Source of the DNA: a phage | Length of the DNA stretch: 64,000 nucleotides | Strand: one strand, 5' to 3' | Sequence record: PQ724392.1 | Part shown: piece after piece, positions 38,889-63,154 of the stretch | Numbering within the stretch: position 1 is the first letter of the stretch | Layout: each line of letters opens with the position of its first letter | The notes under the pieces: generated by a model | Told to the model about the DNA's origin: nothing | What the model saw: the letters and a program-made list of their open reading frames with translations, nothing else | The model's database searches: none | Program-made: the position numbers and the translations under genes

Positions 38889-38954
38889 TTTATTCTCCAG
38901 TATTTGGTAACTCAGTATGGGAACATTATACGTCTATCCCCATACCATGTACAC
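38889..38954 (-). promoter_or_regulatory. early promoter cassette (-35 GTGTAC, -10 TATAAT, long conserved leader)
   Basis: GTGTAC-N18-TATAAT then GTTCCCATACTGAGTTACCAAATACTGGAGAATAAA before ATG. Confidence 0.5.
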
Positions 38955-38956
38955 AT

Positions 38957-39259
38957 TTAATTAAAAGTTCTTTCAGTATTTTCACCGCTGAACCAGACGC
39001 TCTTAACGGCTTGCTGGGCGCGGTAGAGCTGCTCCGCCATATAAACACCAAGGGCCTCAGCTTTACGCGTTCTGTGAGCTTCTGCGGCGACCATTTGCAG
39101 CTTATCCATCATGATAAGAGCTTTACATTTCTCCTTCAGAGCATATCGCTTCTTCTCTTCTGGAGTTTTGACCATTCCTCTTAACTTGTGCATTTTCAAC
39201 TTAAAATGGTCAGCAGATTTCAGACATGCATCAATCATGTCAATTTCATACTTTTTCAT
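38957..39259 (-). CDS. hypothetical protein
   Basis: 100-aa ORF co-oriented. Confidence 0.4.
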   Translation of the reverse strand: MKKYEIDMIDACLKSADHFKLKMHKLRGMVKTPEEKKRYALKEKCKALIMMDKLQMVAAEAHRTRKAEALGVYMAEQLYRAQQAVKSVWFSGENTERTFN

Positions 39260-39265
39260 AATTCC

Positions 39266-39472
39266 TCACTTGCGACGACGTTTTGGTAATGGTTTAGGGA
39301 AGAACATTGCTTTACCTGCAGGGGTTAAAGTCACACGCAAAGCATTACCAATACCAAGGGATGCTTTAACCAGACCTTTGGCTTTTAACTCACCAAATGC
39401 TTGACGTTGTTCAGGGTCACGAGTGTTAACCATCAGACCTTTTTCACCAGCAGCTTTGATTAATTCTAACAT
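39266..39472 (-). CDS. hypothetical small basic protein
   Basis: 68-aa ORF ending KRRRK; preceded by promoter cassette. Confidence 0.4.
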   Translation of the reverse strand: MLELIKAAGEKGLMVNTRDPEQRQAFGELKAKGLVKASLGIGNALRVTLTPAGKAMFFPKPLPKRRRK

Positions 39473-39543
39473 TTTATTCTCCGTTTGTTTATTTGGTAAC
39501 TCAGTATGGAATCATTATGCCTCATGACCATCTGGTTGTACAC
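39473..39543 (-). promoter_or_regulatory. early promoter cassette (-35 GTGTAC, -10 CATAAT, long conserved leader)
   Basis: GTGTAC-N18-CATAAT then GATTCCATACTGAGTTACCAAATAAACAAACGGAGAATAAA before ATG. Confidence 0.5.
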
Positions 39544-39589
39544 ATATACTAAATAAAAATACTTAATAAAACCATAAAGGAGAAAGTTT

Positions 39590-40336
39590 ATGATTTTATC
39601 CGGAAGAACTGTTGATGAACTCAATGAAAAAGTCCAGGCTGCCTTGGCTAATAATTGGTATTTGTTTGGTTCTACTATGGTGTTGCCGAATACTCCTACG
39701 GATAGCAAAGAGCGTTTTTTCCAAACTATGTCCAGCTCGGAAACTCAGATACCGGGCCCGCCTGGTCCAAAAGGAGACCCGGGTGTACCAGGACCAAAAG
39801 GAGACCCAGGCGGGGATGGAAAGTCTTCTTATCAGATATGGCTTGACTTGGGAAATACAGGAACTGTTGATGATTTTTTAACTGATACAGCAGGAAAGAG
39901 GGAAAAATCCGAGGTGTTTTGGAGTGGTATAAACGTTCTATTAACTAATGGTGTGACTTCAAACATAATTAGTATTTTAAAGGGGATTCCGCCGACTGCA
40001 GGGACTCTATCTCCGTTTTTTAGAACCACTGATGATAAGTTGTGGCCATATAACCAAGACAGAAGCCTAATGTTTAAACTCAACCTTATTGGTAATTTTA
40101 CAGGAGCCTCGCAAGCTCGAAGTATAACATTAAATTTCGTTGGAACCAACGGAAACACTTATATACAGAATCGTCCGGAAAATGCTACAGATATTTTGTC
40201 TTTTACAACGTTCTTTAGCATTGATAAAGATGGGGCAATGGCAACCAATGGTACAGCTATAACTGTTATGCCAAATGGCGGCAACTTTACAATAACCTCT
40301 GCATTGTTAGTAGCCGAACAAACAGTGACTTCATAA
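39590..40336 (+). CDS. collagen-like repeat protein with C-terminal globular domain, plus-strand
   Basis: ATG 39590 preceded by AAGGAGAAAG; eight G-X-Y triplets (GPPGPKGDPGVPGPKGDPGGDGKS); followed by hairpin + T-tract; only sizeable gene antisense to its neighbours. Confidence 0.6.
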   Translation: MILSGRTVDELNEKVQAALANNWYLFGSTMVLPNTPTDSKERFFQTMSSSETQIPGPPGPKGDPGVPGPKGDPGGDGKSSYQIWLDLGNTGTVDDFLTDTAGKREKSEVFWSGINVLLTNGVTSNIISILKGIPPTAGTLSPFFRTTDDKLWPYNQDRSLMFKLNLIGNFTGASQARSITLNFVGTNGNTYIQNRPENATDILSFTTFFSIDKDGAMATNGTAITVMPNGGNFTITSALLVAEQTVTS

Positions 40337-40345
40337 ACAAAAAAA

Positions 40346-40365
40346 GGGCCAGATGGCCCTTAGAT
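40346..40365 (+). terminator. stem-loop terminator of the collagen-like gene
   Basis: GGGCC-agat-GGCCC followed by TTAGATT, 10 nt after stop codon. Confidence 0.5.
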
Positions 40366-40602
40366 TGCACTCCAAAAATTATGGAATCTTATAGTATTGA
40401 TAGCCCAGTTAACAAACCTGCGAGTTTGCTTGGGAGTTGGTTTGCATGTGTACTTGATATTGACCCGACGACCAGTTTCCCGACAGACTGCTTCGAGATA
40501 CCAGCGTCGACCTTTATTAGGTCTTCCGTATGATAAGAAGACCTTCATTTCTTCATTAACGATAATAGGAATTGTGGTTGTCAAGATATACCTCTTCAAC
40601 AA
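40360..40602 (-). CDS. small basic protein (start uncertain)
   Basis: 80-aa ORF overlapping the nucleotidyltransferase 3' end; internal Met would remove the overlap. Confidence 0.3.
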   Translation of the reverse strand: MLKRYILTTTIPIIVNEEMKVFLSYGRPNKGRRWYLEAVCRETGRRVNIKYTCKPTPKQTRRFVNWAINTIRFHNFWSAI

Positions 40603-41566
40603 ACTTGTCCCAGAACTTCATGTCCACCTTCGCAGGCATACCGTTCTTAGCAGCCTGGATGGCCAGGACTTCAACTTCATCAACAGTATTTTCCAACAGG
40701 CCTTGAACTACTTTGAAAGGCATATCACCAGCTTTTATTGCTTTAATAATAGAAGCGTTTTTGAGCGGATAAACCAGGTCACCAGTTTGATAGATTTCCT
40801 TCAGCTGATATCCAGCTCGATAAGCATGGCTCAGAGCTTTCCAGTCAATACCTTCATTCGCTTCAGCCTTACGAGCACGTTCACCATATTCGGCATCAAG
40901 TTTATTCAGAGATTGCTTGAGCTCGATTAATGACAAAGTAGTTTGGTATTTACGACCGAGAATAGTATAGAACGTTTGAGGACCTGTTTTCTCATGGTTA
41001 TGAAATATCCATTCACAGAACTCGTTTTCAGGGAGTCTGTGTTTGATATCTTCTACCTTAGTACGTCGTTGCTTAGTAGAACCATCTTCTTGATAATCGA
41101 CCCATTGTTCAGGAATCTGGTTAACAATTTCCAATACACCACGCAGTGCAGCCAATCGAGAACCTTTAACACCATATTTGGAAGCTTGCTTACGGACGTA
41201 CCCCAAATAGGCTTTCATGTTAGTTGTATAGAACCGTGAACGGTTGTCCTGAATAAACTTCCATACATCTGGTAAATCGGATTTGACTACCAGGTCAGCC
41301 GGGGTGTGAATCATATCCAGAGCAACGGTTTCGCCATCGGCCGCCAGTTTAAAGAAATATTTCAGACTATAAAGTTCATGGTCAACATCATCTTTTGTAT
41401 TTTTGGTAGCCGTGTTATTCGTGTTCAGGTTTGTATGATTCATCGCGGTTCCGAGCAGGATATCTCGCGGATGTGGAACAAAGATTTCTTTAAAATCGAC
41501 ATCAGATTCTGGGGTACTTGTTCCATAAAGATGGCTACCGAAGTAGCCTTTCATAACTGTTCTCAT
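40556..41566 (-). CDS. Pol-beta superfamily nucleotidyltransferase-like protein
   Basis: 336 aa; N-terminal GSHLYGTSTPESDVDF fits GS-x9-SD-x-D NTase signature, followed by DDVDH; ATG overlaps stop of upstream membrane ORF. Confidence 0.5.
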   Translation of the reverse strand: MRTVMKGYFGSHLYGTSTPESDVDFKEIFVPHPRDILLGTAMNHTNLNTNNTATKNTKDDVDHELYSLKYFFKLAADGETVALDMIHTPADLVVKSDLPDVWKFIQDNRSRFYTTNMKAYLGYVRKQASKYGVKGSRLAALRGVLEIVNQIPEQWVDYQEDGSTKQRRTKVEDIKHRLPENEFCEWIFHNHEKTGPQTFYTILGRKYQTTLSLIELKQSLNKLDAEYGERARKAEANEGIDWKALSHAYRAGYQLKEIYQTGDLVYPLKNASIIKAIKAGDMPFKVVQGLLENTVDEVEVLAIQAAKNGMPAKVDMKFWDKFVEEVYLDNHNSYYR

Positions 41567-42015
41567 TTCTTCGCCTCAAAATGGATTACTGGGCACATCT
41601 TAGATTTACGAGCTTTGATATATTGAATGAAAACATTTTCTTTAATTTCCTTTCCTTCACGTTTAGCTTTAATGCGTTCCCATTCTTTTTCTTCTTTACG
41701 TAAATCGTACCAGGCCCATAAATTCATTAGACCATACATTAGACCAAATGCTACCGTCAGAATAAGAGCCAGTGTAGCTAGTCCTAAAATAAACCCTAAA
41801 CCTAAACCGACCGGGGTGCTTAATACAAAGAAATGCTCTAATACACCTGCGCCCGCGACAGTTAATCCAAAAACCATACTACCGATAAAAACGGCACAAA
41901 CAAAACAAGCCCAAACCATTTTCCAGAAATAAGCACACAAAGAGTGTGGACGAGAATGACGGTCATAAAAACGGTCGTGGAAACGAGCGTGCCATGAGTT
42001 TGTATTGATAATCAT
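41563..42015 (-). CDS. multi-pass membrane protein, translationally coupled to NTase
   Basis: 150 aa; 3-4 hydrophobic helices; Lys/Glu-rich C-terminal tail; ATGA overlap with downstream gene. Confidence 0.45.
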   Translation of the reverse strand: MIINTNSWHARFHDRFYDRHSRPHSLCAYFWKMVWACFVCAVFIGSMVFGLTVAGAGVLEHFFVLSTPVGLGLGFILGLATLALILTVAFGLMYGLMNLWAWYDLRKEEKEWERIKAKREGKEIKENVFIQYIKARKSKMCPVIHFEAKK

Positions 42016-42026
42016 AATAATTTTCC

Positions 42027-42587
42027 TTAAGAGTTCATAGTTGGGATAACAGAGTTCAGATAAGAGACTAAAACTTTTAGCTCGTCCTTAGTAAATACCA
42101 CTTCACTTTCGCCGTCATGTCTTTGGACAATAGATAACAGGTCACGGCCGTTATGTTGATGCACAGTTAATTCAGTATTATAATCTAGTTCTTCTTCATC
42201 GCCTTCAAACGTTTCACTAGAGCGAATCAGTGCATCTTGTCCCGGAACTTTCCATTCAACTTCCGGTTTACATTCTTCCTGGAAGAGTTTGAAAATACAA
42301 TCAAAGAATTTATCAGAATCGCTAATGCTCAGGCATTCTATACCATTTTCCAGATTAAACCCATTTTCATTTTTATAGATATAAGCGTATAGCTCATCGT
42401 TAATATCGACAGGAGCACTGTTACGTCCATTGAGATAGTCAGCTCTATCCAAAACCATTAAATCATAAAGTGGTTTAATATCTTGGATAGTCAGTACGAT
42501 TTTATCGTCTTCTTGACAAAGCTCAATTGCGTTATTAACCACTTCAGCAGTCAGTTCGCCAAACAATTCAGTTGTTTCAATAATCAT
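42027..42587 (-). CDS. strongly acidic hypothetical protein
   Basis: 186-aa ORF with large excess of Asp/Glu over Lys/Arg. Confidence 0.45.
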   Translation of the reverse strand: MIIETTELFGELTAEVVNNAIELCQEDDKIVLTIQDIKPLYDLMVLDRADYLNGRNSAPVDINDELYAYIYKNENGFNLENGIECLSISDSDKFFDCIFKLFQEECKPEVEWKVPGQDALIRSSETFEGDEEELDYNTELTVHQHNGRDLLSIVQRHDGESEVVFTKDELKVLVSYLNSVIPTMNS

Positions 42588-42597
42588 TTTCTGTTCC

Positions 42598-42882
42598 TCA
42601 ACGGTTATGTTTTAAAATACTATAAAGCGCTTCTACTTGGCTTGCATCCAGGTAAATAACATCATCATCTTGCTCAATGGAAATCCCACCGGTATTACCT
42701 TTAACAAAATTACATTCGCATACTTCAACTGGGCGGTATACGTCACCAACTGGATGCTCAGGCTCCAGAACAATCACACCATTTTCAGAATTACCGCTTG
42801 GGTCATATAACATTACATTTTCCTCACTAACCACGAAAAGAATAAACCGATTAAAATAGGACCTATAATCATTGTTGACCAA
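42598..42882 (-). CDS. hypothetical protein
   Basis: 94-aa ORF co-oriented. Confidence 0.35.
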   Translation of the reverse strand: MVNNDYRSYFNRFILFVVSEENVMLYDPSGNSENGVIVLEPEHPVGDVYRPVEVCECNFVKGNTGGISIEQDDDVIYLDASQVEALYSILKHNR

Positions 42883-42904
42883 GCCCAGGGTTCTAAGTAA
42901 TAAA

Positions 42905-43162
42905 TCATCTCATGCTCCTGTGCCAACAATTTCTTGGTTCACGTTTAAAAATTTCATCATGCATTGATTGACAACCAACACAATATATCACACCTTTAAT
43001 CGCTTGTCTCCGCGCTTCAGGAATTTTTTCGTCGCAGTCAAAACAGAATTCAGCAGACTCCCTTTCAACTGCAACTTGTGCTCGTGCGTGAACGATAGCG
43101 GCTTGGACAACCGCTTCCATCTCTAACTGTTCAGCACCATCTTTTGTAAATCCAACAGCCAT
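42905..43162 (-). CDS. zinc-ribbon protein
   Basis: 85 aa with CFDC ... CVGC pairs. Confidence 0.4.
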   Translation of the reverse strand: MAVGFTKDGAEQLEMEAVVQAAIVHARAQVAVERESAEFCFDCDEKIPEARRQAIKGVIYCVGCQSMHDEIFKREPRNCWHRSMR

Positions 43163-43344
43163 TATGCTTTCAACTCATTCAGATACTCAACCATGGCTGC
43201 TTTAGAGTTAGCCAAATCTCGTTTACACTGCTCTATTCCGGAATATGAATAGCCTTCACAATGTTCGACTGCAATATCATAAGAATCGCGTTCAATAGCA
43301 GTAGCAAGTTTAAGGATTTTTTCAATCTGTTCAGTAGTTAACAT
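43162..43344 (-). CDS. hypothetical protein
   Basis: 60-aa ORF co-oriented. Confidence 0.35.
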   Translation of the reverse strand: MLTTEQIEKILKLATAIERDSYDIAVEHCEGYSYSGIEQCKRDLANSKAAMVEYLNELKA

Positions 43345-43348
43345 AATA

Positions 43349-43585
43349 TCACCAGTATTTTTTGATGGTAGAAATTAATTCTTGAGCTTGAGTGGTCTTC
43401 AGCTTACACCCACAACCCTTTAAGGTATCTTTAAGGAGCCATGGCTCCTTGAGCTCGTCCTTTTCCAGTCGGATTCTATATCCGCGGTAATCAGCAAATA
43501 TGCTTCCGTCATCAAATATCTTAATTTCAAGAATATGATTATTGGTTTCATATTCTAATGAAACCATGGTATTTGTAAGTTTCAT
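43349..43585 (-). CDS. hypothetical protein
   Basis: Start moved to internal Met (MKLTNTMVSL...) adjoining upstream stop. Confidence 0.35.
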   Translation of the reverse strand: MKLTNTMVSLEYETNNHILEIKIFDDGSIFADYRGYRIRLEKDELKEPWLLKDTLKGCGCKLKTTQAQELISTIKKYW

Positions 43586-43791
43586 TATTCCACCACATAT
43601 GATAATGAGAAAATTGCCGATGAAAGATGAGTAGCATCTTCTTCGCACAGTTCAAATGGAGCTTTCTGTAAGAGTTCAACCACTTCTTCATCAGTGGCAC
43701 TGTCCATAAAGATTGCATAATCATTAAGATAGATAACAACCTCATCACCAGTATTAACTGCATCAATCTTGATATTTTTAATTCTCATCAT
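43585..43791 (-). CDS. hypothetical protein
   Basis: 68-aa ORF directly downstream of promoter cassette. Confidence 0.4.
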   Translation of the reverse strand: MMRIKNIKIDAVNTGDEVVIYLNDYAIFMDSATDEEVVELLQKAPFELCEEDATHLSSAIFSLSYVVE

Positions 43792-43850
43792 GTTCTCCTC
43801 AGTAGTTGATGGGATAATAGTACACCCTTTTTATGAGGATGTAAACCCCC
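43792..43850 (-). promoter_or_regulatory. early promoter cassette (-35 GTTTAC, -10 TACTAT, conserved leader)
   Basis: GTTTAC-N18-TACTAT then TATCCCATCAACTACTGAGGAGAAC before ATG. Confidence 0.5.
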
Positions 43851-43889
43851 TAAATGAAAAAAGGTCCACCCGAAGGCAGACCTTTTGAA

Positions 43890-44604: not shown

Positions 44605-44630
44605 AGCGGAATACTAGTTAGTAACTGTAT

Positions 44631-44906: not shown

Positions 44907-44913
44907 GCGAACC

Positions 44914-45486: not shown

Positions 45487-45495
45487 ATCACCTTC

Positions 45496-45681
45496 TTAAA
45501 GCGTATTCACATAAGCTATTAATTCGTTTTCTTTCGCATCAAATCGATTAGCAAATTCTTCCTGATGTTCGGCATCTATCGGACCATATTCATCGTAAAA
45601 AGCGTTTGCTTCTGTATGCTCATCCAAAAGCTCATGGATAAGCTCAAACAATCTACTTTTCTGACTAATACTTAAACTCAT
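45496..45681 (-). CDS. hypothetical protein
   Basis: 61-aa ORF co-oriented. Confidence 0.35.
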   Translation of the reverse strand: MSLSISQKSRLFELIHELLDEHTEANAFYDEYGPIDAEHQEEFANRFDAKENELIAYVNTL

Positions 45682-47628: not shown

Positions 47629-48087
47629 TTAGATATAAATCACTTTTGTGCTAATTTTTCCTTCCAGACGATTAGAGTTAACAAACGCCATACGACAACA
47701 CATGGTCGGAGACTTCCCAGGAATAGCGGGGTTAACTGTCATTCCTAACCACAGGTTCTTGTCTGTAATTTCCAGACGAAGTGGACGGTAGTTCACATTC
47801 GGGTCAATTTGTGCTTCAACTTCCGGGAGTGGTTTCATCTCCAAGAATTCAACGATTTCTTTTACATGTGGTGTGATTTTTCCAAACAAGTCAAAAACAT
47901 ATTGTTCATCAATTTCACGTTGGATTGCACGGTCCAACAGATGTGGACTGTACTTAATGAAGAATGCCTCAAGGCCTGCTTCTTTACAAGCCTTGTTGAT
48001 AGCATTATTAATTTTGAGGAACTCCGTTTCAAAAATGCGACGAAGTTTATTGCGGCGAATGTAAACACTTGAATCGATAGTAGTCAT
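47629..48087 (-). CDS. regB: endoribonuclease RegB
   Basis: Start set at ATG 48087 (MTTIDSSVYIRRNKLRRIFETEF...), 152 aa; matches remembered T4 RegB; promoter cassette lies inside the longer ORF-track frame. Confidence 0.7.
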   Translation of the reverse strand: MTTIDSSVYIRRNKLRRIFETEFLKINNAINKACKEAGLEAFFIKYSPHLLDRAIQREIDEQYVFDLFGKITPHVKEIVEFLEMKPLPEVEAQIDPNVNYRPLRLEITDKNLWLGMTVNPAIPGKSPTMCCRMAFVNSNRLEGKISTKVIYI

Positions 48088-48143
48088 AATTATCTCCTTT
48101 TGTTTGATGGGATAATCATAACTCATTTCAATCTGCTTGTACA

Positions 48144-48144
<1 letters not shown>
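48088..48144 (-). promoter_or_regulatory. early promoter cassette (-35 GTGTAC, -10 TATGAT)
   Basis: GTGTAC-N18-TATGAT then TATCCCATCAAACAAAAGGAGATAATT before regB ATG. Confidence 0.5.
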
Positions 48145-49755: not shown

Positions 49756-49915
49756 AGTTGCCTCTTAGTTGTGGGGCCGTTCCTTGGCACATAATTCATC
49801 CGTGTATCCGTATGTAAACCCCTTACCGCACTTGGGCTCGACCTTATTACAGGTAGGGAAAGGTCCATCACTCAGAGGACGCGACGTTCATGAGGAGAGG
49901 GCCGGCTTGCCTTTA

Positions 49916-50215
49916 TTAGAAAGAACCAGAGCCTTTAATTGTGTTCTGGCGACCTTTATTTTCTAATTCAGAATGGTCGATTTCATATGCTTGTGCTACG
50001 CCAAAGGCCTTTTTAACTTTAGCTAAAGAGCCTTTAGATGTGACAATATTAAAAGTATTGCCTTTAGTAAAATCAACCAAATCCACTTGTACACCCTGTT
50101 TACCGAGGCTTGCTACAATAGCATCAACATATTGTTGGTCTAAATTGCCCTGGACTCCGATTTGAAATGCTTTGGGAGCTTTGGCTTCAGTAATAAATTC
50201 TTGATACGTTTTCAT
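49916..50215 (-). CDS. internal-protein-like gene with capsid targeting sequence
   Basis: Internal start MKTYQEFITEAK matches T4 IP CTS pattern (MKTYQEFIAE); ORF-track frame extends 13 codons upstream. Confidence 0.5.
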   Translation of the reverse strand: MKTYQEFITEAKAPKAFQIGVQGNLDQQYVDAIVASLGKQGVQVDLVDFTKGNTFNIVTSKGSLAKVKKAFGVAQAYEIDHSELENKGRQNTIKGSGSF

Positions 50216-50263
50216 TTTATATTCCATTGTTTGGTTGATAAAATCATTATACAACCTTTTTAG

Positions 50264-50680
50264 TTAAGCGTACACAGCTTTCCCATAGTATTTGTACCAA
50301 GCAGGCTTTTGAGAAATTTTCTCATTCAGTCTAGCTTGACTGATTTCAATTGACCAGATTGATGGTTGATAATCATTCTTCCATTCATCAGGAATATCAG
50401 TTAAATCTTGGGTAGAAATATCTTTTATGTTAAACCCTCGCTTTAAACATTCCGCAATAAGTTCTTGATGCCGGTTTTTAAGGAACAAAAGCTTATCATA
50501 AAAGAAGGTGACATGACCAGTCCCTAAAAGGAAAGATGATGGGATTTTAAAGTCAGAAACCTTTTTACCATTTTGTACATGCTTACGAACAGCACCAAAC
50601 ACGCGAGGAAGTTCACGATATTCAGCCATAAGATGTTGGTCAGCGAGTTCAGATACCAGGGTTAAATTAATGCGAGTCAT
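50264..50680 (-). CDS. denV: endonuclease V (pyrimidine dimer DNA glycosylase)
   Basis: 138 aa; [35 protein letters not shown] ... [11 protein letters not shown] matches remembered T4 DenV nearly throughout. Confidence 0.9.
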
Positions 50681-50735
50681 GTTTGTTCTCCGTAGTTGAT
50701 AGGGTCATTATAACCCTATCATTTGGAGATGTACA
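50681..50735 (-). promoter_or_regulatory. early promoter (-35 ATGTAC, -10 TATAAT)
   Basis: TGTACA-N17-TATAAT then GACCCTATCAACTACGGAGAACAAAC before denV ATG. Confidence 0.45.
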
Positions 50736-51005
50736 TCATTTCTTAGAGTATTGACCCATAAGTTTAGCGATATCACCCAATTTCTGATTAAACAAATAAT
50801 CCACTTCTTTGCCAGATTTATCTACAATTTGCCACTGACCATTTCCTTTGTTGCCAAAGGTCCAATCACCAACTTTAAATGAAGTTCCATTAACTTTTTT
50901 AATAGAAGTAAACTCAAAGCCTTCTTTCTTAGCTAAAAATGCCATGCGGCTTTCATCTGATTCATTTAATACAGATTCAGCCAAAAATTCTTGATACGTT
51001 TTCAT
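50736..51005 (-). CDS. internal-protein-like gene with capsid targeting sequence
   Basis: 89 aa starting MKTYQEFLAESV. Confidence 0.5.
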   Translation of the reverse strand: MKTYQEFLAESVLNESDESRMAFLAKKEGFEFTSIKKVNGTSFKVGDWTFGNKGNGQWQIVDKSGKEVDYLFNQKLGDIAKLMGQYSKK

Positions 51006-51013
51006 ATTTTACC

Positions 51014-51505: not shown

Positions 51506-51531
51506 AATACCCCCTTATATAGGGGTATTTA

Positions 51532-52219: not shown

Positions 52220-52803
52220 TTACGGCATTCCTCAATAAAGGAGTTCAATGTATTTTTCTTAGTGATATCGTCATATACCTTTTTAACTTTAGAAATACGA
52301 AAAGGTACTTCAATAACCATAGTCCATAAAAATGATGCAATAAGCCCAGCGAGAGCAGTAGAAAAGCACGCACCCATTACAGCTACAGGTGCTTCATTTT
52401 TGCCTGTCAAGAAAAACCACAGGAATGGTAAAAATAAGATTCCAGCCCAGGCATAAAACCTGGAACAAATTAACTTATCAAATTCATCACTCCAGGTACG
52501 AAATCCATATTTCTTGCTATAAGAAATTAATGGGTCGGGTGTCTGTTCTTTGAGCGGTTCTGGTTGATGCCCATTAATGATGTATCCCATTTTATATTCC
52601 TTAATTAAAAGCTCTTTCACATGACGATTGCATCGCGACCAATCAACATTTTCCACCTTGATTCCTTCATCACCATCATCAAGGTTCGCCCAATATTTTT
52701 TGGTAATCATAAATTCATCTCTTGATACAATTATACCTGCATTTTCTGCCCGGCGGATGAAGTTTACATCAACACCCATGCACCCGGGCTCATAAAGGGC
52801 CAT
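52216..52803 (-). CDS. membrane protein, FIxEC C-terminal family
   Basis: 195 aa; two hydrophobic helices; ends FIEECRK. Confidence 0.4.
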   Translation of the reverse strand: MALYEPGCMGVDVNFIRRAENAGIIVSRDEFMITKKYWANLDDGDEGIKVENVDWSRCNRHVKELLIKEYKMGYIINGHQPEPLKEQTPDPLISYSKKYGFRTWSDEFDKLICSRFYAWAGILFLPFLWFFLTGKNEAPVAVMGACFSTALAGLIASFLWTMVIEVPFRISKVKKVYDDITKKNTLNSFIEECRK

Positions 52804-53489
52804 TACCAGCCCTCCATAGGGAATTCCAGATATACTTGAGCATTAACGCGGATTTCATTTGTAATCTTTTTAACACGGTCAGTATTACGAGACACACGAC
52901 CAAACCAGCGCCACCCGTTACTTACTGCGCGAGAACCTGTATGCCATGTCTGCCAATCAAACTGGAGCAATGTGCGGTCAGGAGCATCCCACTTGGTTAA
53001 TTCATTGGACTCAATTTTTTCCAGAACTTCTTTATGCCACTGACGATAGATAAGTTCGCCTTCAGGAATCTGACTAAATTGCGCAGTTCCGGTTGCAAAA
53101 TAAGTAGGACACACATCAGCGTTAACAAGACCAAGAATATGTTCAGAATGGTAACGAGGATTATCATAATCAGGTTGCCCTGCAGTAATAAAGTGTTGAC
53201 CAACCGGAATATCCGGGCGTGGTACATCGTCATGGTGATAACCTGGGATAGCAGGATACCAACCAGGCATCAGCATATGAACCCGAGAATCAAATACAAC
53301 CTGGTCGGTGTTCCAATCATCCGGCAAACTCATGATAAAGCTACGAGTAATAGGACCGCCATTGTCAAAAGCGAAAGCCAATGAGCTGTTGAAGAACATA
53401 GTTTCGTTTTTGATTTTATCATTAGAAATTTTACCAGCGAAACTGCCTACTGCATGAGCTTGAGAATTAAAAGTTTTTGGACCGTTCAT
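52803..53489 (-). CDS. hypothetical protein
   Basis: 228-aa ORF; His-rich patches (YHHDD, YHSEH); function unknown. Confidence 0.4.
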   Translation of the reverse strand: MNGPKTFNSQAHAVGSFAGKISNDKIKNETMFFNSSLAFAFDNGGPITRSFIMSLPDDWNTDQVVFDSRVHMLMPGWYPAIPGYHHDDVPRPDIPVGQHFITAGQPDYDNPRYHSEHILGLVNADVCPTYFATGTAQFSQIPEGELIYRQWHKEVLEKIESNELTKWDAPDRTLLQFDWQTWHTGSRAVSNGWRWFGRVSRNTDRVKKITNEIRVNAQVYLEFPMEGW

Positions 53490-53548
53490 AATATTTTCCT
53501 CATTGATTGTGGGACCATTGTGTCATAGTCCCACTTAGATGTACATAC

Positions 53549-54699: not shown

Positions 54700-54900
54700 T
54701 CAAATAATACCGTATGCGTAAATATCTCTTTTAATGCAGGAAACTACTTCTTCCAGAGAATCACAAACACGTTCTGTGACGCCTGCGTAATCACCACTGA
54801 TGGTTACTTTAATGCCATCAGAAACTTCCTGGAGATTAACCTCCAGTTGGTTGACTTTGGCTTCGTTCAGAACTTTGATTAATTCGTTTGCGATAGACAT
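54700..54900 (-). CDS. hypothetical protein
   Basis: 66-aa ORF directly downstream of promoter cassette. Confidence 0.4.
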   Translation of the reverse strand: MSIANELIKVLNEAKVNQLEVNLQEVSDGIKVTISGDYAGVTERVCDSLEEVVSCIKRDIYAYGII

Positions 54901-54958
54901 TTTTATTCTCCTGTTCTGATAACGTGATTGTCATCAGTTGATAGGAGTATAGTAACAC
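54901..54958 (-). promoter_or_regulatory. early promoter (-35 GTATAC, -10 TACTAT)
   Basis: GTATAC-N18-TACTAT then ACTCCTATCAACTGATGACAA leader. Confidence 0.45.
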
Positions 54959-54964
54959 AGTTTT

Positions 54965-55309
54965 TTAGACTTGTATACTGCTTCTACAATATTCTAAAAA
55001 TAATTTATCGTTGTCTACCTTATCCCAACGACGCCAAGATGGATTCCAGACCAGAGCGTTGTCACCGCAATCATTGAGCTTAAAGTGGTCGTAGTACATA
55101 GCTATATGTCTGGTTTCGTCACCAGAGAACCCCAGTATATGCTCACCGTGGGTATGATACATATGATGATGCATTGAGAGGTCGCATTTGTAAAACATCT
55201 CACGTTTACCACGAACGAACAAGAAGGCTTGCCCATTCATATAGAATTCTTTATCTGTTTTCAAAAGATATTTGAATACCGAATCTTTATGCATAATTCC
55301 TCCTACCAC
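54965..55309 (-). CDS. His-rich hypothetical protein
   Basis: 114 aa with MHHHMYHTHGEH cluster. Confidence 0.4.
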   Translation of the reverse strand: MVGGIMHKDSVFKYLLKTDKEFYMNGQAFLFVRGKREMFYKCDLSMHHHMYHTHGEHILGFSGDETRHIAMYYDHFKLNDCGDNALVWNPSWRRWDKVDNDKLFLEYCRSSIQV

Positions 55310-57810: not shown

Positions 57811-57834
57811 TTAGGGGGCTTTGCCCCCTTTATC

Positions 57835-58428: not shown

Positions 58429-58500
58429 GGTATTTCCTTCAGTTGGTTAATGTTTTATTATCCAGGGAACATACTATCATGTTCCCATTAAAGCACTAAT

Positions 58501-58806
58501 TTAGATTTTGTTTTCCTGCACACCATAATAAAGTTCATCAGACACAATATCCAGGATGCGGCGAACATATTCATCATGGTATTGGCAGTCAAAATCAAAT
58601 GCAACAGTAGTTTCCGCTTCACGAGTGAATTTAACTTGCACATTCAGGTGATTAACAACGTTAGTTAATTTATCAGTAAAGAACTCTTTTGCTACCGCCT
58701 GTTGGACTTGCACTTTAAACTTGGTGTTACGAATCATATTTTCAGCAGATGCGAAATTACCAGTTTTATCAAAGTCAACAAGCGCCAGGTTGATGATGAA
58801 TTTCAT
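58501..58806 (-). CDS. hypothetical protein
   Basis: 101-aa ORF downstream of promoter cassette. Confidence 0.4.
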   Translation of the reverse strand: MKFIINLALVDFDKTGNFASAENMIRNTKFKVQVQQAVAKEFFTDKLTNVVNHLNVQVKFTREAETTVAFDFDCQYHDEYVRRILDIVSDELYYGVQENKI

Positions 58807-58885
58807 TTTATTCTCCAGTGTTTTATTTGGTAACTCAGTATGGAATCATTATGCCTTAAAGCAGGGGGCTTGTATACCCCCTTTT
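58807..58885 (-). promoter_or_regulatory. stem-loop + early promoter cassette (PeSL-like)
   Basis: GGGGGTATACAAGCCCCC hairpin containing -35 GTATAC, N18, CATAAT, leader GATTCCATACTGAGTTACCAAATAAAACACTGGAGAATAAA. Confidence 0.5.
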
Positions 58886-58889
58886 TGAA

Positions 58890-59333
58890 TTAAATTTCAA
58901 ATTCTTTGCGGAAGTTGGAAGCATAAGACTGAACTGATGCTTTGTTGAATCCAAACTCACGCACAATCATATCAATAACAGCTCTGCGAGCAGCACCATT
59001 AGACATATTAACAGTTTTGAACATATCATAGCATAAATCTTTGTTGCTCATACCGGAGCGTTTAGGTGCCTTACGTTCAGCTTTTGGTTCAGCTTTAGGA
59101 GTAGGTTTAACTTCTGGTTTAACCTGTCCATCATTCAGACCTTTAAAAATTTTACCTGCCAGAGTTGCCAGTTTAGCAGCTTCGCCACGAGTGATACCAA
59201 ATACTGCCGGGTTAAATGAAATACCTTCAGCTGCCAGACGTTTGAAGAACATACGTGCTGCGGATTGTGCTTCAGCTTCAGAAGAGTTGTTTAATGCCAG
59301 CTTAACGTACTTAACCAGTTTTGAAGTTTTCAT
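58890..59333 (-). CDS. hypothetical protein, paralog of 59415..59840
   Basis: 147 aa; shared C-terminal block GAARRA.ID..V ... VQSYASNFRK. Confidence 0.45.
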   Translation of the reverse strand: MKTSKLVKYVKLALNNSSEAEAQSAARMFFKRLAAEGISFNPAVFGITRGEAAKLATLAGKIFKGLNDGQVKPEVKPTPKAEPKAERKAPKRSGMSNKDLCYDMFKTVNMSNGAARRAVIDMIVREFGFNKASVQSYASNFRKEFEI

Positions 59334-59403
59334 TTTATTCTCCAGTGTTTATTTGGTAACTCAGTATGGGATAATTATACACTATCCCACCTGGAAGTAA
59401 AAC
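59334..59403 (-). promoter_or_regulatory. early promoter cassette (-35 GTTTTAC, -10 TATAAT, long conserved leader)
   Basis: GTTTTAC-N17-TATAAT then TATCCCATACTGAGTTACCAAATAAACACTGGAGAATAAA. Confidence 0.5.
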
Positions 59404-59414
59404 ACTTTTCTCAA

Positions 59415-59840
59415 TTATTTTTGAGCTTTGCGGAAGTTGGAAGCATATGACTGAACAACAGTCTTTTTGATATCATGGGTGTTAACCAGAACATCAATCA
59501 GGGCGCGTCGAGCTGCACCATCTGCCATATCAATTTCTGCAAATGCCTGGAAGCAAATGTCACGAGCATTACCAGATTTAGACTGGATTTTTTCTTCTTT
59601 AACTTCTTCAATTGGGAATTCAATCATTTCAGCTTGGATTAATTCAATGATAGATTCTTTTGACTGTTTGGTGTTTACCTTCAGTTCAGAATTAAGGGAC
59701 TTAGCGATGGCAACAATCTGGGTTGAAGTCAGATGAATAAGTGCATCTTCACGAATGCAGATTTCACATACTTCGTCGGCAACCATTTTGTTAGTGATGC
59801 GGGTAACAGAGAATGCAGAAGTCAGGGTCAGGAAGTTCAT
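59415..59840 (-). CDS. hypothetical protein, paralog of 58890..59333
   Basis: Start set at ATG 59840 (MNFLTLTS...) because promoter cassette lies inside the longer ORF-track frame. Confidence 0.45.
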   Translation of the reverse strand: MNFLTLTSAFSVTRITNKMVADEVCEICIREDALIHLTSTQIVAIAKSLNSELKVNTKQSKESIIELIQAEMIEFPIEEVKEEKIQSKSGNARDICFQAFAEIDMADGAARRALIDVLVNTHDIKKTVVQSYASNFRKAQK

Positions 59841-59925
59841 TTTATTTCTCCAAAGTTTTGTTTGATTCAGTGTGTAACTCAGTATGGAATCATTATGCAT
59901 CCAGTCAATTCGGATGTACACTACT
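59841..59925 (-). promoter_or_regulatory. early promoter cassette (-35 GTGTAC, -10 CATAAT, long conserved leader)
   Basis: GTGTAC-N18-CATAAT then GATTCCATACTGAGTTACACACTGAATCAAACAAAACTTTGGAGAAATAAA. Confidence 0.5.
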
Positions 59926-59981
59926 TTTTGAAGAAAATTTCAAATTTATTCGGGGTATAAAAAAGCCCGCAATGCGGGCTG

Positions 59982-60536
59982 TTAGTTCTTATAAAAGCGG
60001 AACGGATTTATATGAAAGGCGAGCATAGCCTTAGGGATTGGTCGGGACAGAAGACTCTTGAGCTTCCAGCCACAATAAACGCGCAGATAAAAGGTGATTC
60101 CACCGACCTTAAGATAAGGAACAGAAGCAAAAACACCCCAGGCATTATCCGTCCACATCCAGAGCCAGCCATGGTGAGCTTTGTCTGGGGAGCCGGATTC
60201 AACATCAGGATTACCTTTATAATGGAATTCTGAATTGCAATCACGACCAAGCTTGTGGTAAGCAAAATTGTATGCTTTATTTCGCCAGAGCCAGGCTACT
60301 CGTTGGAAGTAAACACCTAACGGCCATTTTCGGATTTTTGACCAACGTTCGACATGACCCCGGTCGCCATCAATCGGATTGTCATATGTCATCATCCAAT
60401 CAAATCCGAACGGAAGTTTACCAGTCTTTTTATTATGGAATGGAACTACAAATGGAGCCAGGATAACGGCCAGAATCATGGAGATAAAATCCAGCGGAAC
60501 TAACAGAATCCAACTCAAATATTTTAACAGTTTCAT
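59982..60536 (-). CDS. membrane protein
   Basis: Likely start MKLLKYLSWILLVPLD; N-terminal hydrophobic helices; TATAAATC late-like element upstream. Confidence 0.4.
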   Translation of the reverse strand: MKLLKYLSWILLVPLDFISMILAVILAPFVVPFHNKKTGKLPFGFDWMMTYDNPIDGDRGHVERWSKIRKWPLGVYFQRVAWLWRNKAYNFAYHKLGRDCNSEFHYKGNPDVESGSPDKAHHGWLWMWTDNAWGVFASVPYLKVGGITFYLRVYCGWKLKSLLSRPIPKAMLAFHINPFRFYKN

Positions 60537-60560
60537 ACGTTTCTCTTTAGTTGATTTATA

Positions 60561-60588
60561 AAAAAGCCCCAACCTTTCGGAAGGGGCT
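60561..60588 (-). terminator. stem-loop terminator
   Basis: AGCCCC-loop-GGGGCT followed by TTTTTT on gene-sense strand. Confidence 0.5.
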
Positions 60589-60625
60589 ATACCTTGTCGG
60601 GGTTCCACCTGCAAGGCAAGTGTTC

Positions 60626-61009
60626 TTATCCGCGAGCGAATGCCATTGCAGCGCGTTCGTTGGCACGGTCGGTGATGTTCAAGAATTTATCACGAGCGAT
60701 TTCGATTGGAGCGCCAACCCAGTCAGCAGCTCCATTACCCGGAGACTGTTTAGGGCGAACCATATAAGTTGAAACTTTGGAACCGGCTAGTTTGGCACCT
60801 GGCGCCGCGGCATTTTTAACGTCTTTAGCTTTGATGCCAAACCCAGTTACGATACCCCAAGAAACGCCATTAACTGGTTTCTTGAACATAACACGGTCAC
60901 CAATTGAAACACCGGCTTTTTCTGGAGCCACTAAAGAAAATTTACCAGCTTCAGTCAGTACAGATTCGGTGATGGTATTGCGATTTAAAAATTCTGCATA
61001 TGTAAGCAT
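60626..61009 (-). CDS. hypothetical protein with CTS-like N-terminus
   Basis: 127 aa starting MLTYAEFLNR; exact TATAAATA upstream. Confidence 0.45.
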   Translation of the reverse strand: MLTYAEFLNRNTITESVLTEAGKFSLVAPEKAGVSIGDRVMFKKPVNGVSWGIVTGFGIKAKDVKNAAAPGAKLAGSKVSTYMVRPKQSPGNGAADWVGAPIEIARDKFLNITDRANERAAMAFARG

Positions 61010-61030
61010 TTTGTTTTTCCATTATTAGGG

Positions 61031-61038
61031 TTGTTGTT
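61031..61038 (-). promoter_or_regulatory. late promoter -10 element TATAAATA
   Basis: Exact TATAAATA on gene-sense strand about 25 nt upstream of ATG 61009. Confidence 0.45.
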
Positions 61039-61049
61039 AATATTTATAT

Positions 61050-61240
61050 TCCATAGTACCGGATGCACCATCCGCTCGGATTTCTCATACTACCGGGCGC
61101 ACCGCCCGCTCTGGAAAAACTCCGTAAAAGGGTGCGCCGTTTCAGCTGTGGTAGTAAAGAACCAGAACACAGTAAAACTGTGGGAGGAACTATACTTCAG
61201 GGAACTTCAGTCCGACGACTTACCGGTAGCGACCCGGTTT
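61050..61240 (-). other. structured intergenic element with paired hairpin repeats
   Basis: Two ~24-nt direct repeats each folding into a short hairpin with CAC loop, plus downstream complement of the second; no ORF; adjacent to tRNAs. Strand not determined. Confidence 0.3.
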
Positions 61241-61241
61241 C

Positions 61242-61481
61242 TCATTCAATTGTAATAGCTAATTTGACTTTAACAACCTTATAATTGGAATCAAGGTCAT
61301 TGAATTCCATAAAATTTGTTGCTAATCTGCGAGTCGGGAAACTTAGATATTTATTATGCTCAGGTGGAGCAGTTAATGCAAACCATGGGACTTGTTTATC
61401 ATTTTCATCAAACTCATCAAAGCTATAAACCAGCTCGTTGTTGGTTATATCCATAACTGCATATGATTCACTAATAACCAT
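61242..61481 (-). CDS. hypothetical acidic protein
   Basis: Start moved to MVISESY; the ORF-track N-terminal extension is the reverse complement of tRNA-Arg. Confidence 0.4.
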   Translation of the reverse strand: MVISESYAVMDITNNELVYSFDEFDENDKQVPWFALTAPPEHNKYLSFPTRRLATNFMEFNDLDSNYKVVKVKLAITIE

Positions 61482-61486
61482 AATAT

Positions 61487-61563
61487 CCTCGGTAATTGGT
61501 CGGGGTGGTGGGATTCTAACCCACAACCTACGGTTTAGAAGACCGTTGCTCTATACAATTGAG
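61487..61563 (-). tRNA. tRNA-Arg (anticodon TCT), CCA encoded
   Basis: Folded by hand: acceptor CGGGGTG/CACCCCG, D-arm GCTC/GAGC, anticodon stem ACGGT/ACCGT with loop CTTCTAA, T-arm GTGGG/CCCAC, discriminator A + CCA. Confidence 0.8.
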
Positions 61564-61565
61564 CT

Positions 61566-61639
61566 ACACCCCGGGTGGCCCCATCCGGACTTGAACCGGA
61601 AACCTGCCAGTTATGAGCCGGATGCTCTAACCAATTGAG
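61566..61639 (-). tRNA. tRNA with anticodon CAT (Met or lysidine-type Ile)
   Basis: Folded by hand: acceptor GGCCCTG/TGGGGCC (two G-U), D-loop with GG, anticodon loop CTCATAA, T-arm TCCGG-TTCAAGT-CCGGA; 2-nt spacer to tRNA-Arg. Confidence 0.7.
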
Positions 61640-61654
61640 CTACAGGGCCTAAAA

Positions 61655-61930
61655 TTAAATTACAAATCCAGCGGGAGCATTATCATCTTTAACCATATGC
61701 TGAATTGTATGATAAGTCATTTCTTCTGGAGCAACCAGATAAGCCGCCGTATTAACCAACGGGATTAATTTGACTTTATTAAATGTTGGACAACCAATTG
61801 ACATAAAGGTTTCGCCTGTTGGATGCTGAATTTCGCCAAATTGGCACTCATACGAGATAGAGCAACGTTTGGTAGTGGTTGTCTTTGTTTTAGGGTCATA
61901 AAAAGCTAATTTTAATACTAACATAAACAC
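61655..61930 (-). CDS. hypothetical protein
   Basis: 91-aa ORF co-oriented. Confidence 0.35.
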   Translation of the reverse strand: MFMLVLKLAFYDPKTKTTTTKRCSISYECQFGEIQHPTGETFMSIGCPTFNKVKLIPLVNTAAYLVAPEEMTYHTIQHMVKDDNAPAGFVI

Positions 61931-62045
61931 CTCAAGTAAAATTAAGTAAAGTAAGTTTGATTAATAGCACATGCTATTATGAAAGGTTCTTTGAGGGAAG
62001 AACCTTTGGTAATAGAGGGTACTTATTAATAATAACACATTTTTA

Positions 62046-62528
62046 TTAAAGCATATCAAGCGCTTTAACAGATGGGATTCGGATTTCTTCTTCGATTATA
62101 TATAGCTTAACATAAGAAATTACACGCATGAAATCGCCATCATATTCGCAAGCCATACCAAGGAGCTCAGTAAGGGCTTCATTCAGGTAGTATTCTTCAT
62201 CATCGCCATTTAGCAATGCATCTAAATCTTCTACACCCAAAACCTTACTTAAAAATTCATGGGTTAACTGACCAGATTTTACGCCAGATTCAATGTGGGC
62301 AATAACCAAGTGTTTAACCACATCCCATTTTGAATTACCACATTTGTTGTGGTTGTTGCAATGCGAACCATGGAAAAGTTCCAGGATATATTTGTACTGT
62401 TGGATTTCTTGTTCTTCTACACCAAATACAGTCTGGGTTTTATAATTATCACCATCATTTTCCCAGGTTTCAATTTCAATCACATAACCTTTAGGGATGG
62501 TCTGACCAAATTTGATATTCATTCGCAT
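62046..62528 (-). CDS. hypothetical protein
   Basis: 160-aa ORF co-oriented. Confidence 0.4.
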   Translation of the reverse strand: MRMNIKFGQTIPKGYVIEIETWENDGDNYKTQTVFGVEEQEIQQYKYILELFHGSHCNNHNKCGNSKWDVVKHLVIAHIESGVKSGQLTHEFLSKVLGVEDLDALLNGDDEEYYLNEALTELLGMACEYDGDFMRVISYVKLYIIEEEIRIPSVKALDML

Positions 62529-62908
62529 GTGCCTTCATCAACAATAGTATGTGTATTGGCATTGACAATCTGCCACCAGTCAAAGCGATTGGAACCATAA
62601 CAAGGCTTATTCTCGTTTTCTTTAATGATAACACGCAGTTCATCTTCAGTCGCAGCCTTTGCGATTAAGTCAGCATAACCGCCACGAGGATAATAGCTAT
62701 CACCAGCAAAGAGCAAAAAGTTTGTTTTGATATTCTTGAATTCTTCAAGAGTAATAACTGTTCCACCCGGTTGAACAATATCTACATAACTATATCCTAA
62801 TTTCTGTGCTTCATTTACCGCTTCGAGCAGGGTGTCGTGTGCCCACCCAATTTGACAATCTGGTTTTTCAGATGGGTTTGCCTGATAATCCGCATACACT
62901 TTATACAT
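62519..62908 (-). CDS. hypothetical protein
   Basis: Likely start MYKVYADYQ. Confidence 0.4.
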   Translation of the reverse strand: MYKVYADYQANPSEKPDCQIGWAHDTLLEAVNEAQKLGYSYVDIVQPGGTVITLEEFKNIKTNFLLFAGDSYYPRGGYADLIAKAATEDELRVIIKENENKPCYGSNRFDWWQIVNANTHTIVDEGTCE

Positions 62909-62909
62909 T

Positions 62910-63095
62910 TTACTCACCTTTGGAGATTTTATCCATAACGAAAGAGATTGAACCAATTAAAAATGCAACTACTAAAGAGATTATATTCTCAGAAGTTGAA
63001 AGCATATTCAACATAAAGCCAGCAAACATGCTAAAACCAAAAGCGGTAACAGCAACAAGGGCAGTAACATTTCTAATTAATTCGCAACGTTTCAT
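62910..63095 (-). CDS. small membrane protein
   Basis: 61 aa, hydrophobic; directly downstream of promoter cassette. Confidence 0.4.
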   Translation of the reverse strand: MKRCELIRNVTALVAVTAFGFSMFAGFMLNMLSTSENIISLVVAFLIGSISFVMDKISKGE

Positions 63096-63154
63096 TTTAT
63101 TCTCCTCAGTAGTTGATGGGATAATTATAATGCAGTTATCCCATCGCGTATACT
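63096..63154 (-). promoter_or_regulatory. early promoter cassette (-35 GTATAC, -10 TATAAT, conserved leader)
   Basis: GTATAC-N18-TATAAT then TATCCCATCAACTACTGAGGAGAATAAA. Confidence 0.5.

Follow-up and report, generated by a model that had tools for sequence, protein, structure and literature searches.

Early-promoter and leader cassettes repeated through a variable region of a Gaprivervirus genome resemble the promoter-early stem-loop elements of T4-type phages

Promoter-early stem-loop (PeSL) elements were defined for phages phi1 and RB49 by Arbiol et al. (2010, PMC2839356), with subclasses set by the placement of the stem-loop, including overlap of the -10 element, and for these two phages promoter activity, terminator activity and mini-circles were shown experimentally. 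The same study describes T-even analogues built on T4 early promoters, which are strong sigma70 promoters of pre-replicative genes (Hinton 2010, PMC2988021), and the T4/PST version has been given as TTTACW-N17-TAYWAT (Comeau 2014, PMC4122927). Here we analyze a family of minus-strand intergenic cassettes in 64,000 nucleotides of phage DNA (record PQ724392.1; the whole stretch is called the window), with most attention to positions 38889-63154. An earlier note on this DNA had likened the cassettes to PeSL elements. The repeats are real and were correctly read there, and elements of this kind have already been described in T4 relatives; we consider it quite probable that they serve early-gene expression, each joining a T4-type early promoter to a standard leader and ribosome-binding site, and are the T-even form of PeSL elements. 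Our additions, drawn from sequence, would be a corrected stem-loop anatomy, a built-in predicted RegB site, and predicted helices over the ribosome site of regB and denV that could form in read-through RNA only.

By sequence comparison, 38889-63154 is 97% identical to Escherichia phage ECML-359 across 98% of its length and 93% identical to Shigella phage SP18. Both phages are Tevenvirinae of the genus Gaprivervirus, and the window phage is a T4-like member of the same genus. Nearly all genes of the range lie on the minus strand, in an order that annotation transfer gives as nrdC.8 - tk - vs - regB - denV - e - nudE - e.2...e.6 - tRNAs - trna.3/4 - internal proteins, syntenic with SP18 and with nrdC-tk-regB-denV-e-tRNA-ip of T4, where the counterpart occupies coordinates ~53-74 kb. 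This is a pre-replicative, highly variable section of T4-type genomes. Rfam identified only two tRNAs between 38 and 64 kb, and the leaders matched none of its families. Promoters are not annotated in the T4 RefSeq record, which left no known T4 promoters to transfer to the window, and a literature search turned up no usable RNA-seq start-site map for T4.

We defined a clear cassette as a -35 element, a spacer of 17-18 nt, a -10 element, a conserved leader, a Shine-Dalgarno (SD) sequence and an ATG opening a real open reading frame (ORF), and retained sites only if they occupied an intergenic gap and ended at the ATG of such an ORF. The window holds 21 of these, 12 within 38.9-63.2 kb (-35 starts at 63153, 59921, 59402, 58877, 54978, 53546, 50736, 50275, 48144, 43846, 39543 and 38954) and nine elsewhere (36359, 28811, 28655, 15373, 11112, 10183, 4525, 3924 and 3189), with a further one or two marginal promoter sites in the range (49819 and 57176). 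The figure of at least 14 sites in the earlier note thus stands for the whole window, while the range it was given for yields 12-14. A promoter matrix trained on the -35 and -10 blocks alone found 33 matches on the minus strand and 2 on the plus strand, compared with 6.5 in shuffles, and a strict scan for GTTTAC-N16-18-TATAAT, with at most one mismatch in each hexamer, found 23 and 6, respectively. A generic sigma70 scan (TTGACA/TATAAT) was non-discriminating (42 versus 36.7 and 44 versus 34.1 expected), and a T4-type matrix was therefore required. The same repeat families (D1, D2, D6 and D8) were recovered by an unbiased repeat search.

In each of the 21 cassettes the terminal ATG begins an ORF of 58-329 aa, in most cases after an SD of the GGAG/GAGG type, and the cassettes precede small genes of unknown function (PHROG families) as well as internal head protein genes. 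Three ORFs (listed at 3249, 47629 and 59415) had been suspected of over-extending past the true start; the cassettes bear this out, placing the true ATGs at 3863, 48087 and 59840, and in two of the three the listed start is the GTG of a -35 GTGTAC. In Gaprivervirus genomes the cassettes can therefore serve as a reliable guide to early promoters and true start codons, as these three window ORFs illustrate.

Each cassette runs from an A-tract through a -35 of the form (G)TGTACA/TTTACA, a 17- to 18-nt spacer, a TATAAT-like -10 and a leader to GGAG and ATG, and the promoter module proposed in the earlier note (-35, 17- to 18-nt spacer and TATAAT-like -10 on the minus strand) is real in the 12 in-range cassettes. 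Nineteen aligned copies give the frame TTnAAAAAG - GTGTAC(A) - 17/18 nt - TATAAT - gATyCCAT - [ACTGAGTTAC] - CAAyT - [AAAC] - ACTG(A)GGAG - AATAAA - ATG, with the A/T-rich consensus TTnAAAAAG directly 5' of the -35. Read as TGTACA/TTTACA with a 17-nt spacer, the sequence of this promoter is the T-even early-promoter form of T4/PST.

The two conserved leader types noticed earlier are likewise real, the chance expectation for these exact repeats being 0. Leader A (TATCCCATCAACTACTGAGGAG) lies at 63102, 43795 and 28760 and leader B at 39487, 58821 and 59347, all on the minus strand with at most 1-2 mismatches (0 expected for either), and by alignment we count ~11 leaders of A type and 6 of B type. 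Leader B is the leader A frame with a 10-nt insert, ACTGAGTTAC, after CCAT, and the two are therefore variants within one family. Copies of leader B that lie 19 kb apart and flank unrelated genes share 27 identical nt. Across phage records leader B is found in 321 copies in 45 records, at 7-11 per genome and nearly all in Gaprivervirus, and 701 records contain the 3' half of leader A; among them are T2, T6, Klebsiella phages and the RB15 ip9 locus, whose sequence comes from a 1994 study of T-even internal-protein polymorphism.

We propose that host sigma70 RNA polymerase would bind the A-tract, -35, spacer and -10 and, as we infer from general sigma70 behavior, start ~7 nt past the -10, at the A of CCCAT. 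Counted from this predicted start, leaders in a cassette's own transcript measure 19-45 nt and are essentially unstructured, with a minimum free energy of about 0 to -2.7 kcal/mol for most; such a short leader ending in GGAG(AATAAA)ATG would be expected to give strong translation. The elements of the range, from its right end to its left, and the remaining members of the family are as follows.

63093..63153, minus strand: leader A cassette, GTATAC-N18-TATAAT followed by TATCCCATCAACTACTGAGGAGAATAAA-ATG, predicted to drive the 61-aa gene 62910-63095.
63114-63146, minus strand: -10-spanning helix of cassette 63153, arms GATGGGATAA/TTATCCCATC.
59838..59921, minus strand: cassette with a long leader B variant, GTGTAC-N18-CATAAT; true ATG 59840 of a 141-aa gene whose listed ORF over-extends to the GTG within the -35.
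59964..59980, minus strand: AGCCCGCATTGCGGGCT hairpin and T6 run resembling an intrinsic terminator, located ~45 nt ahead of the -35 at 59921; indel (insertion/deletion) breakpoint at 59968.
59331..59402, minus strand: leader B cassette, TTTTAC-N17-TATAAT, with a -10-spanning helix at 59362-59393 and SD GGAGAATAAAA; 147-aa gene.
58804..58881, minus strand: leader B cassette, -10 CATAAT and SD GGAGAATAAAA; GC-clamped hairpin GGGGGTATACAAGCCCCC (58864-58881) with the -35 GTATAC in its loop.
58429..58500, minus strand: middle-promoter-like module upstream of e.6, in which a MotA box (as defined in PMC2988021), TGCTTTA-N12-TAGTAT, replaces the -35; phage TH54 has a 447-nt insertion here.
Within 58429..58500, minus strand: -10-spanning helix of the e.6 module, arms GGGAACAT/ATGTTCCC.
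54898..54978, minus strand: cassette with a degenerate leader A, GTATAC-N18-TACTAT, then ACTCCTATCAACTGATGAC... and GGAGAATAAAA-ATG; 66-aa gene.
53487..53546, minus strand: cassette ATGTAC-N18-CACAAT, predicted to drive the 228-aa gene (phrog_1843) at 52803-53489.
53509-53534, minus strand: -10-spanning helix of cassette 53546, arms GTGGGACTAT/ATGGTCCCAC.
50678..50736, minus strand: denV cassette with leader A, ATGTAC-N18-TATAAT.
50687-50729, minus strand: two-tier denV helix, the outer TCTCC/GGAGA over the SD and the inner GATAGGGTTAT/ATGACCCTATC spanning the -10.
50213..50275, minus strand: cassette before an internal head protein gene (MKTYQEFITEA start), GTGTAC-N18-TATAAT; breakpoint at 50175-50217.
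48085..48144, minus strand: regB cassette, GTGTAC-N18-TATGAT, then TATCCCATCAAACAAAAGGAGATAATT-ATG; true ATG 48087.
43789..43846, minus strand: leader A cassette, GTTTAC-N18-TACTAT, predicted to drive a 68-aa gene.
43859..43886, minus strand: hairpin resembling an intrinsic terminator, C(UUCG)G at its loop and a T6 run behind it, directly upstream of cassette 43846.
39470..39543, minus strand: leader B cassette, GTGTAC-N18-CATAAT, SD GGAGAATAAAA, predicted to drive a 68-aa gene.
38886..38954, minus strand: nrdC.8 cassette with a short leader B, GTGTAC-N18-TATAAT, -10-spanning helix at 38914-38946 and SD GGAGAATAAAA.
36300-36359, 28748-28811, 28575-28655, 15301-15373, 11054-11112, 10123-10183, 4466-4525, 3861-3924 and 3111-3189, minus strand: the nine out-of-range cassettes (3111..36359) of the same family.

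Compared with the PeSL elements of phi1/RB49 (PMC2839356), the window cassettes share the composite of A/T-rich tract, early promoter, SD and ATG, joined in some cassettes by a strong stem-loop of variable placement, the position upstream of small genes of unknown function, the filling of the whole intergenic space, and the occurrence of a single chimera where a close relative has tandem cassettes around an extra gene, and they match the excision/insertion scheme of Arbiol et al. They differ in having a -35 of the T-even type, (G)TGTACA/TTTACA, rather than the TTGACA of phi1/RB49, in stems that are mostly not polyG/polyC, and in a leader after the -10 that is much more conserved and comes in two types. 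With the PST/T4 analogues (PMC4122927; Repoila et al. 1994, as cited in PMC2839356) they have in common the promoter type, the genome region and the association with internal-protein genes, and the 3' half of leader A is common to the window and to the RB15 ip9 locus, T2 and T6. In the published PST figures the stem-loop lies just upstream of the promoter, whereas in the window it most often lies across the -10, and leader B is essentially Gaprivervirus-specific. T4 early promoters (PMC2988021) share the UP-like A-tract, -35, -10 and conserved positions beyond the hexamers, activity being predicted for the window promoters, and in Gaprivervirus GTGTAC and GTATAC are commoner than GTTTAC as the -35. 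The PeSL-like reading of the earlier note is thus supported by the A/T-rich tract, the sigma70-type early promoter, a variably placed stem-loop in some cassettes, the SD and ATG, the hyperplastic location and the existence of chimeric cassettes.

We compared the window with seven Gaprivervirus genomes, counting events of at least 100 nt, and found 27 distinct indel or replacement events in the range. Breaks fall at 7 of the 12 cassettes, and several indels have their junctions inside a cassette. In ECML-359 an internal-protein-like gene (MKTYQEFINEA...) is flanked by two tandem leader A cassettes, in place of the window's single cassette 63153, which is chimeric: its 5' half is that of the first ECML-359 cassette and its 3' half that of the second, with the crossover within TATAATTATC.CATCAACTACTG. 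At this site (63090-63129) relatives have an extra 253-272 nt with an overlap of 40-55 nt. Similarly, TH54 has tandem cassettes at 59402 where the window has a single chimeric one, and an extra 320-nt gene lies between two cassettes at 59331-59378 in TH22, TH54 and TH57 (overlap 48 nt). Indels tied to cassettes show overlaps of 32-55 nt, compared with 3-13 nt at other indels.

Other events begin at the promoter itself. Window-only segments start exactly at the -35 of 39543 and of 50736; the former, of 784-1012 nt and missing from several relatives, begins at the first base of the -35, and in 6 of 7 relatives synteny at the denV cassette (50736) is lost precisely at the -35. The downstream gene retains at least 94% identity but identity breaks down upstream at 63153 (7/7 relatives), 50736 (6/7), 50275 (5/6), 39543 (4/7) and 59402 (3/7). 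A second recombination repeat, 36 nt comprising the SD and the N-terminal MKTYQEF... codons of internal head protein genes (the capsid-targeting sequence), is present in four copies (50186-50221, 50976-51011, 63368-63403 and 63713-63748), and several indels between relatives begin or end there. As read from junction sequences, recombination between cassettes gains and loses small genes, and for several events the junctions demonstrate it. Cassettes of 55-85 nt with near-identical stretches, at 7-11 per genome, would let homologous recombination delete, insert and swap the small genes that they flank. This provides a junction-level record, in another branch of the T4 family, of cassette recombination adding and removing internal-protein and other small genes.

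We note that a window-only segment (39543-40328/40556) contains, amid the minus-strand early region, a plus-strand ORF of 248 aa (39590-40336) with collagen-like GXY repeats (tandem 27-nt units at 39752-39805) and an Sf6-type tail needle knob domain (PF16532, E = 3e-32). The -35 of cassette 39543 and a terminator at 40344-40361 border the segment, which TH55, TH22 and TH57 lack and of which SP18 has a shorter version.

The stem-loops needed correction. GC-clamped hairpins are present, as the earlier note had it, but the form with the -35 in the loop is rare, with a single case in the range (58877) and two outside it (28811 and 11112), and the commonest stem-loop spans the -10. In this type the helix joins the 3' portion of the spacer to the final -10 bases and the 6-10 nt that follow; it is found at 63153, 59402, 53546, 50736 and 38954, each at -12 kcal/mol or below. 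Spacer and leader pair more stably within a cassette than in permuted combinations (p = 0.0005), 7 of the 21 cassettes fold with z < -2 relative to shuffles, and cassettes differ from controls (Mann-Whitney p = 0.012). For cassette 53546, the helix is retained in 10 orthologous promoters from several lineages, where 84% of positions are paired compared with 30-55% in slid registers and 5 of 10 pairs have been altered on both sides; arm pairs at this promoter (gene 52803-53489) include GTGGGAC/GTCCCAC, GAGGAC/GTCCTC and AAGAG/CTCTT. That stem-loops occur "often" is a fair statement, and "always" is not. These promoter-overlapping structures, which mostly span the -10 and in some cassettes enclose the -35 in their loop or sit immediately upstream, would take their RNA form only in read-through transcripts, in which they may act as terminators, attenuators or insulators; covariation backs the structure, and the function is our conjecture.

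Two hairpins in the range are oriented differently. The GC-clamped GGGGGCAAAGCCCCC (57811-57834) lies between two genes without a promoter and has its T-run on the plus strand rather than the coding (minus) strand, and the T-run of the hairpin at 58864-58881 is likewise on the plus strand. Both may be terminators of antisense transcription.

The ribosome-binding end of the cassette carries a further signal. The sequence GGAGAATAAAA is an exact 11-nt instance of GG*AGRAYARAA, the strong intergenic RegB/S1 cleavage consensus of T4 early mRNAs (Uzan & Miller 2010, PMC3014915). Exact matches to GGAGRAYARAA number seven in the window (0.48 expected), all on the minus strand, inside cassettes and abutting the ATG; six are in the range (38888, 39472, 54901, 58806, 59333 and 63095), and in-range cassettes 53546 and 50275 lack GGAG. 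The regB gene lies in the same genome (47629-48087). These sites share with the strong RegB/S1 sites (Durand et al. 2006, as cited in PMC3014915) the consensus, the position in the translation initiation region of early genes and the presence of regB in the genome, and they are predicted sites. Going by the published consensus, phage RegB could inactivate cassette mRNAs minutes later at the GGAG site, and the cassette appears to hold together an early gene's "on" signals (promoter and SD) and its "off" signal (predicted RegB cleavage). Strong transcription, strong translation and a predicted RegB site, held in one module of 60-85 nt, would explain how a shuffled gene brings with it a full program of early expression, first on and then off.

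At a few genes the arms reach the ribosome-binding site. In the regB helix (48086-48119; z = -3.5) the -10 and discriminator pair with the SD and AUG, a design found in four different arm versions across genera, including T4 (T4 62740-62800). Cassette 4466-4525, upstream of a 186-aa gene for which Pfam gave no match, has a 15-bp helix (z = -2.1) between the -10 CATAAT with the 9 nt that follow it (CATAATGGTCTTTCT) and AGAGAGACCATTATG, which holds the SD and AUG. The design is weak at denV in the window, where the outer TCTCC/GGAGA accompanies an inner -10-spanning helix; upstream of denV in ~30 T4-like genomes the SD and/or AUG has its complement either directly behind the -35 or in the -10 together with the discriminator, with compensatory arm variants (TCTCCTGTAG/CTACAGGAGA, TTCCTCCAAG/CTTGGAGGAA, ATCTCCGTTTG/CAAACGGAGAT and ATAGTAGCCT/AGGCTACTAT) and a mean energy of -13.8 kcal/mol for own pairing versus -8.1 kcal/mol for cross-lineage pairing (permutation p < 0.0002). 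The same SD-pairing design is seen at nrdC.8 in JS98/RB69-like phages. In other T4-like genera (denV, nrdC.8 and regB), the 10-17 nt that directly follow the -35 can pair, as a reverse complement, with the end of the leader and GGAG, and the helix encloses the whole -10 and leader, with many compensatory changes between lineages. A covariation count anchored on CTCC/GGAG and restricted to the flanking pairs found 70.6% of cells paired compared with 33-49% in slid registers, 8 of 9 pairs altered on both sides, and a score reached by 0 of 500 shuffles; as the sequences were chosen for having the anchors, the count is supportive rather than unbiased.

A transcript begun at the predicted start site would leave out the 5' arm, so these helices are possible in read-through transcripts only, and at regB and denV it would be only in read-through RNA that the stem-loops occlude the ribosome-binding site. 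The closest precedent is the set of promoter-embedded hairpins of T4 e, soc, 49 and I-TevI, which likewise pair the SD and/or AUG with an arm upstream of the start, predicted in the case of regB, denV and gene 4468. Section 29 of PMC3014915 describes promoter-embedded hairpins that occlude the translation start only for late promoters, these four genes being its examples, and does not mention such an arrangement for regB. There the embedded promoter is late (TATAAATA) and translation is switched on late, whereas the embedded promoters of the window are of the early type (-35 plus -10); the likeness is therefore one of mechanism and not of membership. By this analogy the read-through helix would be an early-promoter counterpart of the T4 lysozyme-type hairpin, and the helices covering the ribosome site in read-through RNA are the only part of the present results that might be new biology. 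We raise, as a tentative idea that we lean somewhat against, that the stem-loops are more than terminators: with the 5' arm upstream of the cassette's own start they would be specific to read-through RNA, and the promoter used would set both translation and the exposure of GGAG to RegB. If true, read-through helices could insulate the expression of each shuffled gene from its genomic context, and occlusion at regB and denV, if confirmed, would extend classic T4 translational control to early promoters.

A hairpin of the classic kind is also seen in the window. Upstream of gene e (lysozyme), at 51506-51531 on the minus strand, TAAATACCCCTATATAAGGGGGTATTATG contains a late-promoter-like AATAAATA followed by a hairpin, ACCCC/GGGGT, over the SD, which is the known arrangement of the T4 lysozyme translational hairpin.

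Several results weigh against interpreting the cassettes as PeSL elements. Start sites, promoter strength, termination and RegB cleavage in this phage are predictions. A strong stem-loop is found in only about one-third to one-half of the cassettes and is weak or absent elsewhere, and canonical intrinsic terminators (a stem plus T-run) are found only upstream of 43846 and 59921. Counts of G.U versus A.C (9 versus 9; 7 versus 10) fail to separate RNA-level from DNA-level helices. Pairing between the sequence upstream of the start and the leader is not general, with a mean z of 0 over the 21 cassettes and only 48144 and 4525 standing out, which indicates that SD occlusion belongs to particular genes rather than to the family as a whole. 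Finally, breakpoints fall at 7/12 cassette boundaries and 18/45 others (odds ratio, 2.1; Fisher p = 0.21), and with no significant enrichment the cassettes must be regarded as one route of shuffling and not the dominant one.

The last of these results, together with the many indels that have overlaps of 3-13 nt at start/stop junctions, is what one would expect if the cassettes were ordinary early promoters and ribosome sites that had come to look alike by convergent selection for strong signals and played no special role in shuffling. We consider this unlikely, because the identity extends to positions with no known promoter or ribosome role (the 27 nt of leader B, 19 kb apart), because 63153 is a precise chimera of the two tandem ECML-359 cassettes, and because cassette-linked indels have repeat overlaps of 32-55 nt.

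Alternatively, the conserved leaders could be RNA sites through which a translational regulator (RegA, for example, or an S1-dependent enhancer) acts in cis, and would then be neither RegB sites alone nor homology for recombination. They are unstructured, and the A/U-rich AAUAAAAUG context at the start codon is of the kind recognized by T4 RegA. The exact 11-nt match, however, is to the RegB/S1 consensus, and the upstream leader blocks CAACTACTG and ACTGAGTTACC have no known binder; we regard a regulator of this type as a quite improbable explanation. We dropped as the main explanation, and give very little credence to, the proposal that the -10-spanning inverted repeats are operators of a dimeric DNA-binding protein that shuts off early promoters, for although the arms in this genome share a TGGGA...TCCCA core overlapping the -10, the wobble test gives RNA no edge over DNA and the mechanism of early-promoter turn-off in T4 is stated as unknown (Hinton 2010, PMC2988021), half-site spacing varies (13 versus 17 nt between the cores at 59402 and 63153), as does register, other genera keep the helix with unlike arms (GAGGAC/GTCCTC, TGAGGCTAT/ATAGCCTCA and AAGAG/CTCTT), and most cassettes lack the repeat.

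Two further non-coding stretches in the range stand apart from the cassettes. The first is a minus-strand intergenic region of 160 nt (49756-49915) upstream of the vs.8 homologue, which is unusually GC-rich for the genome and kept in relatives. Its folding is no better than that of shuffles (z = 0.00), and Rfam gave nothing for it at E <= 1; a weak promoter-like site, GTTTAC-N17-AATTAT, lies within it at 49819. The second, of 232 nt (61010-61241, minus strand), has no Rfam match at the gathering threshold and lies just downstream of two tRNA genes (61500-61573 and 61576-61649). GC-rich units resembling hairpins, GGTGCGCCCGGTAGTATG and GGTGCATCCGGTACTATG, are repeated within it, and its position is that of the small stable RNAs C and D of T4.

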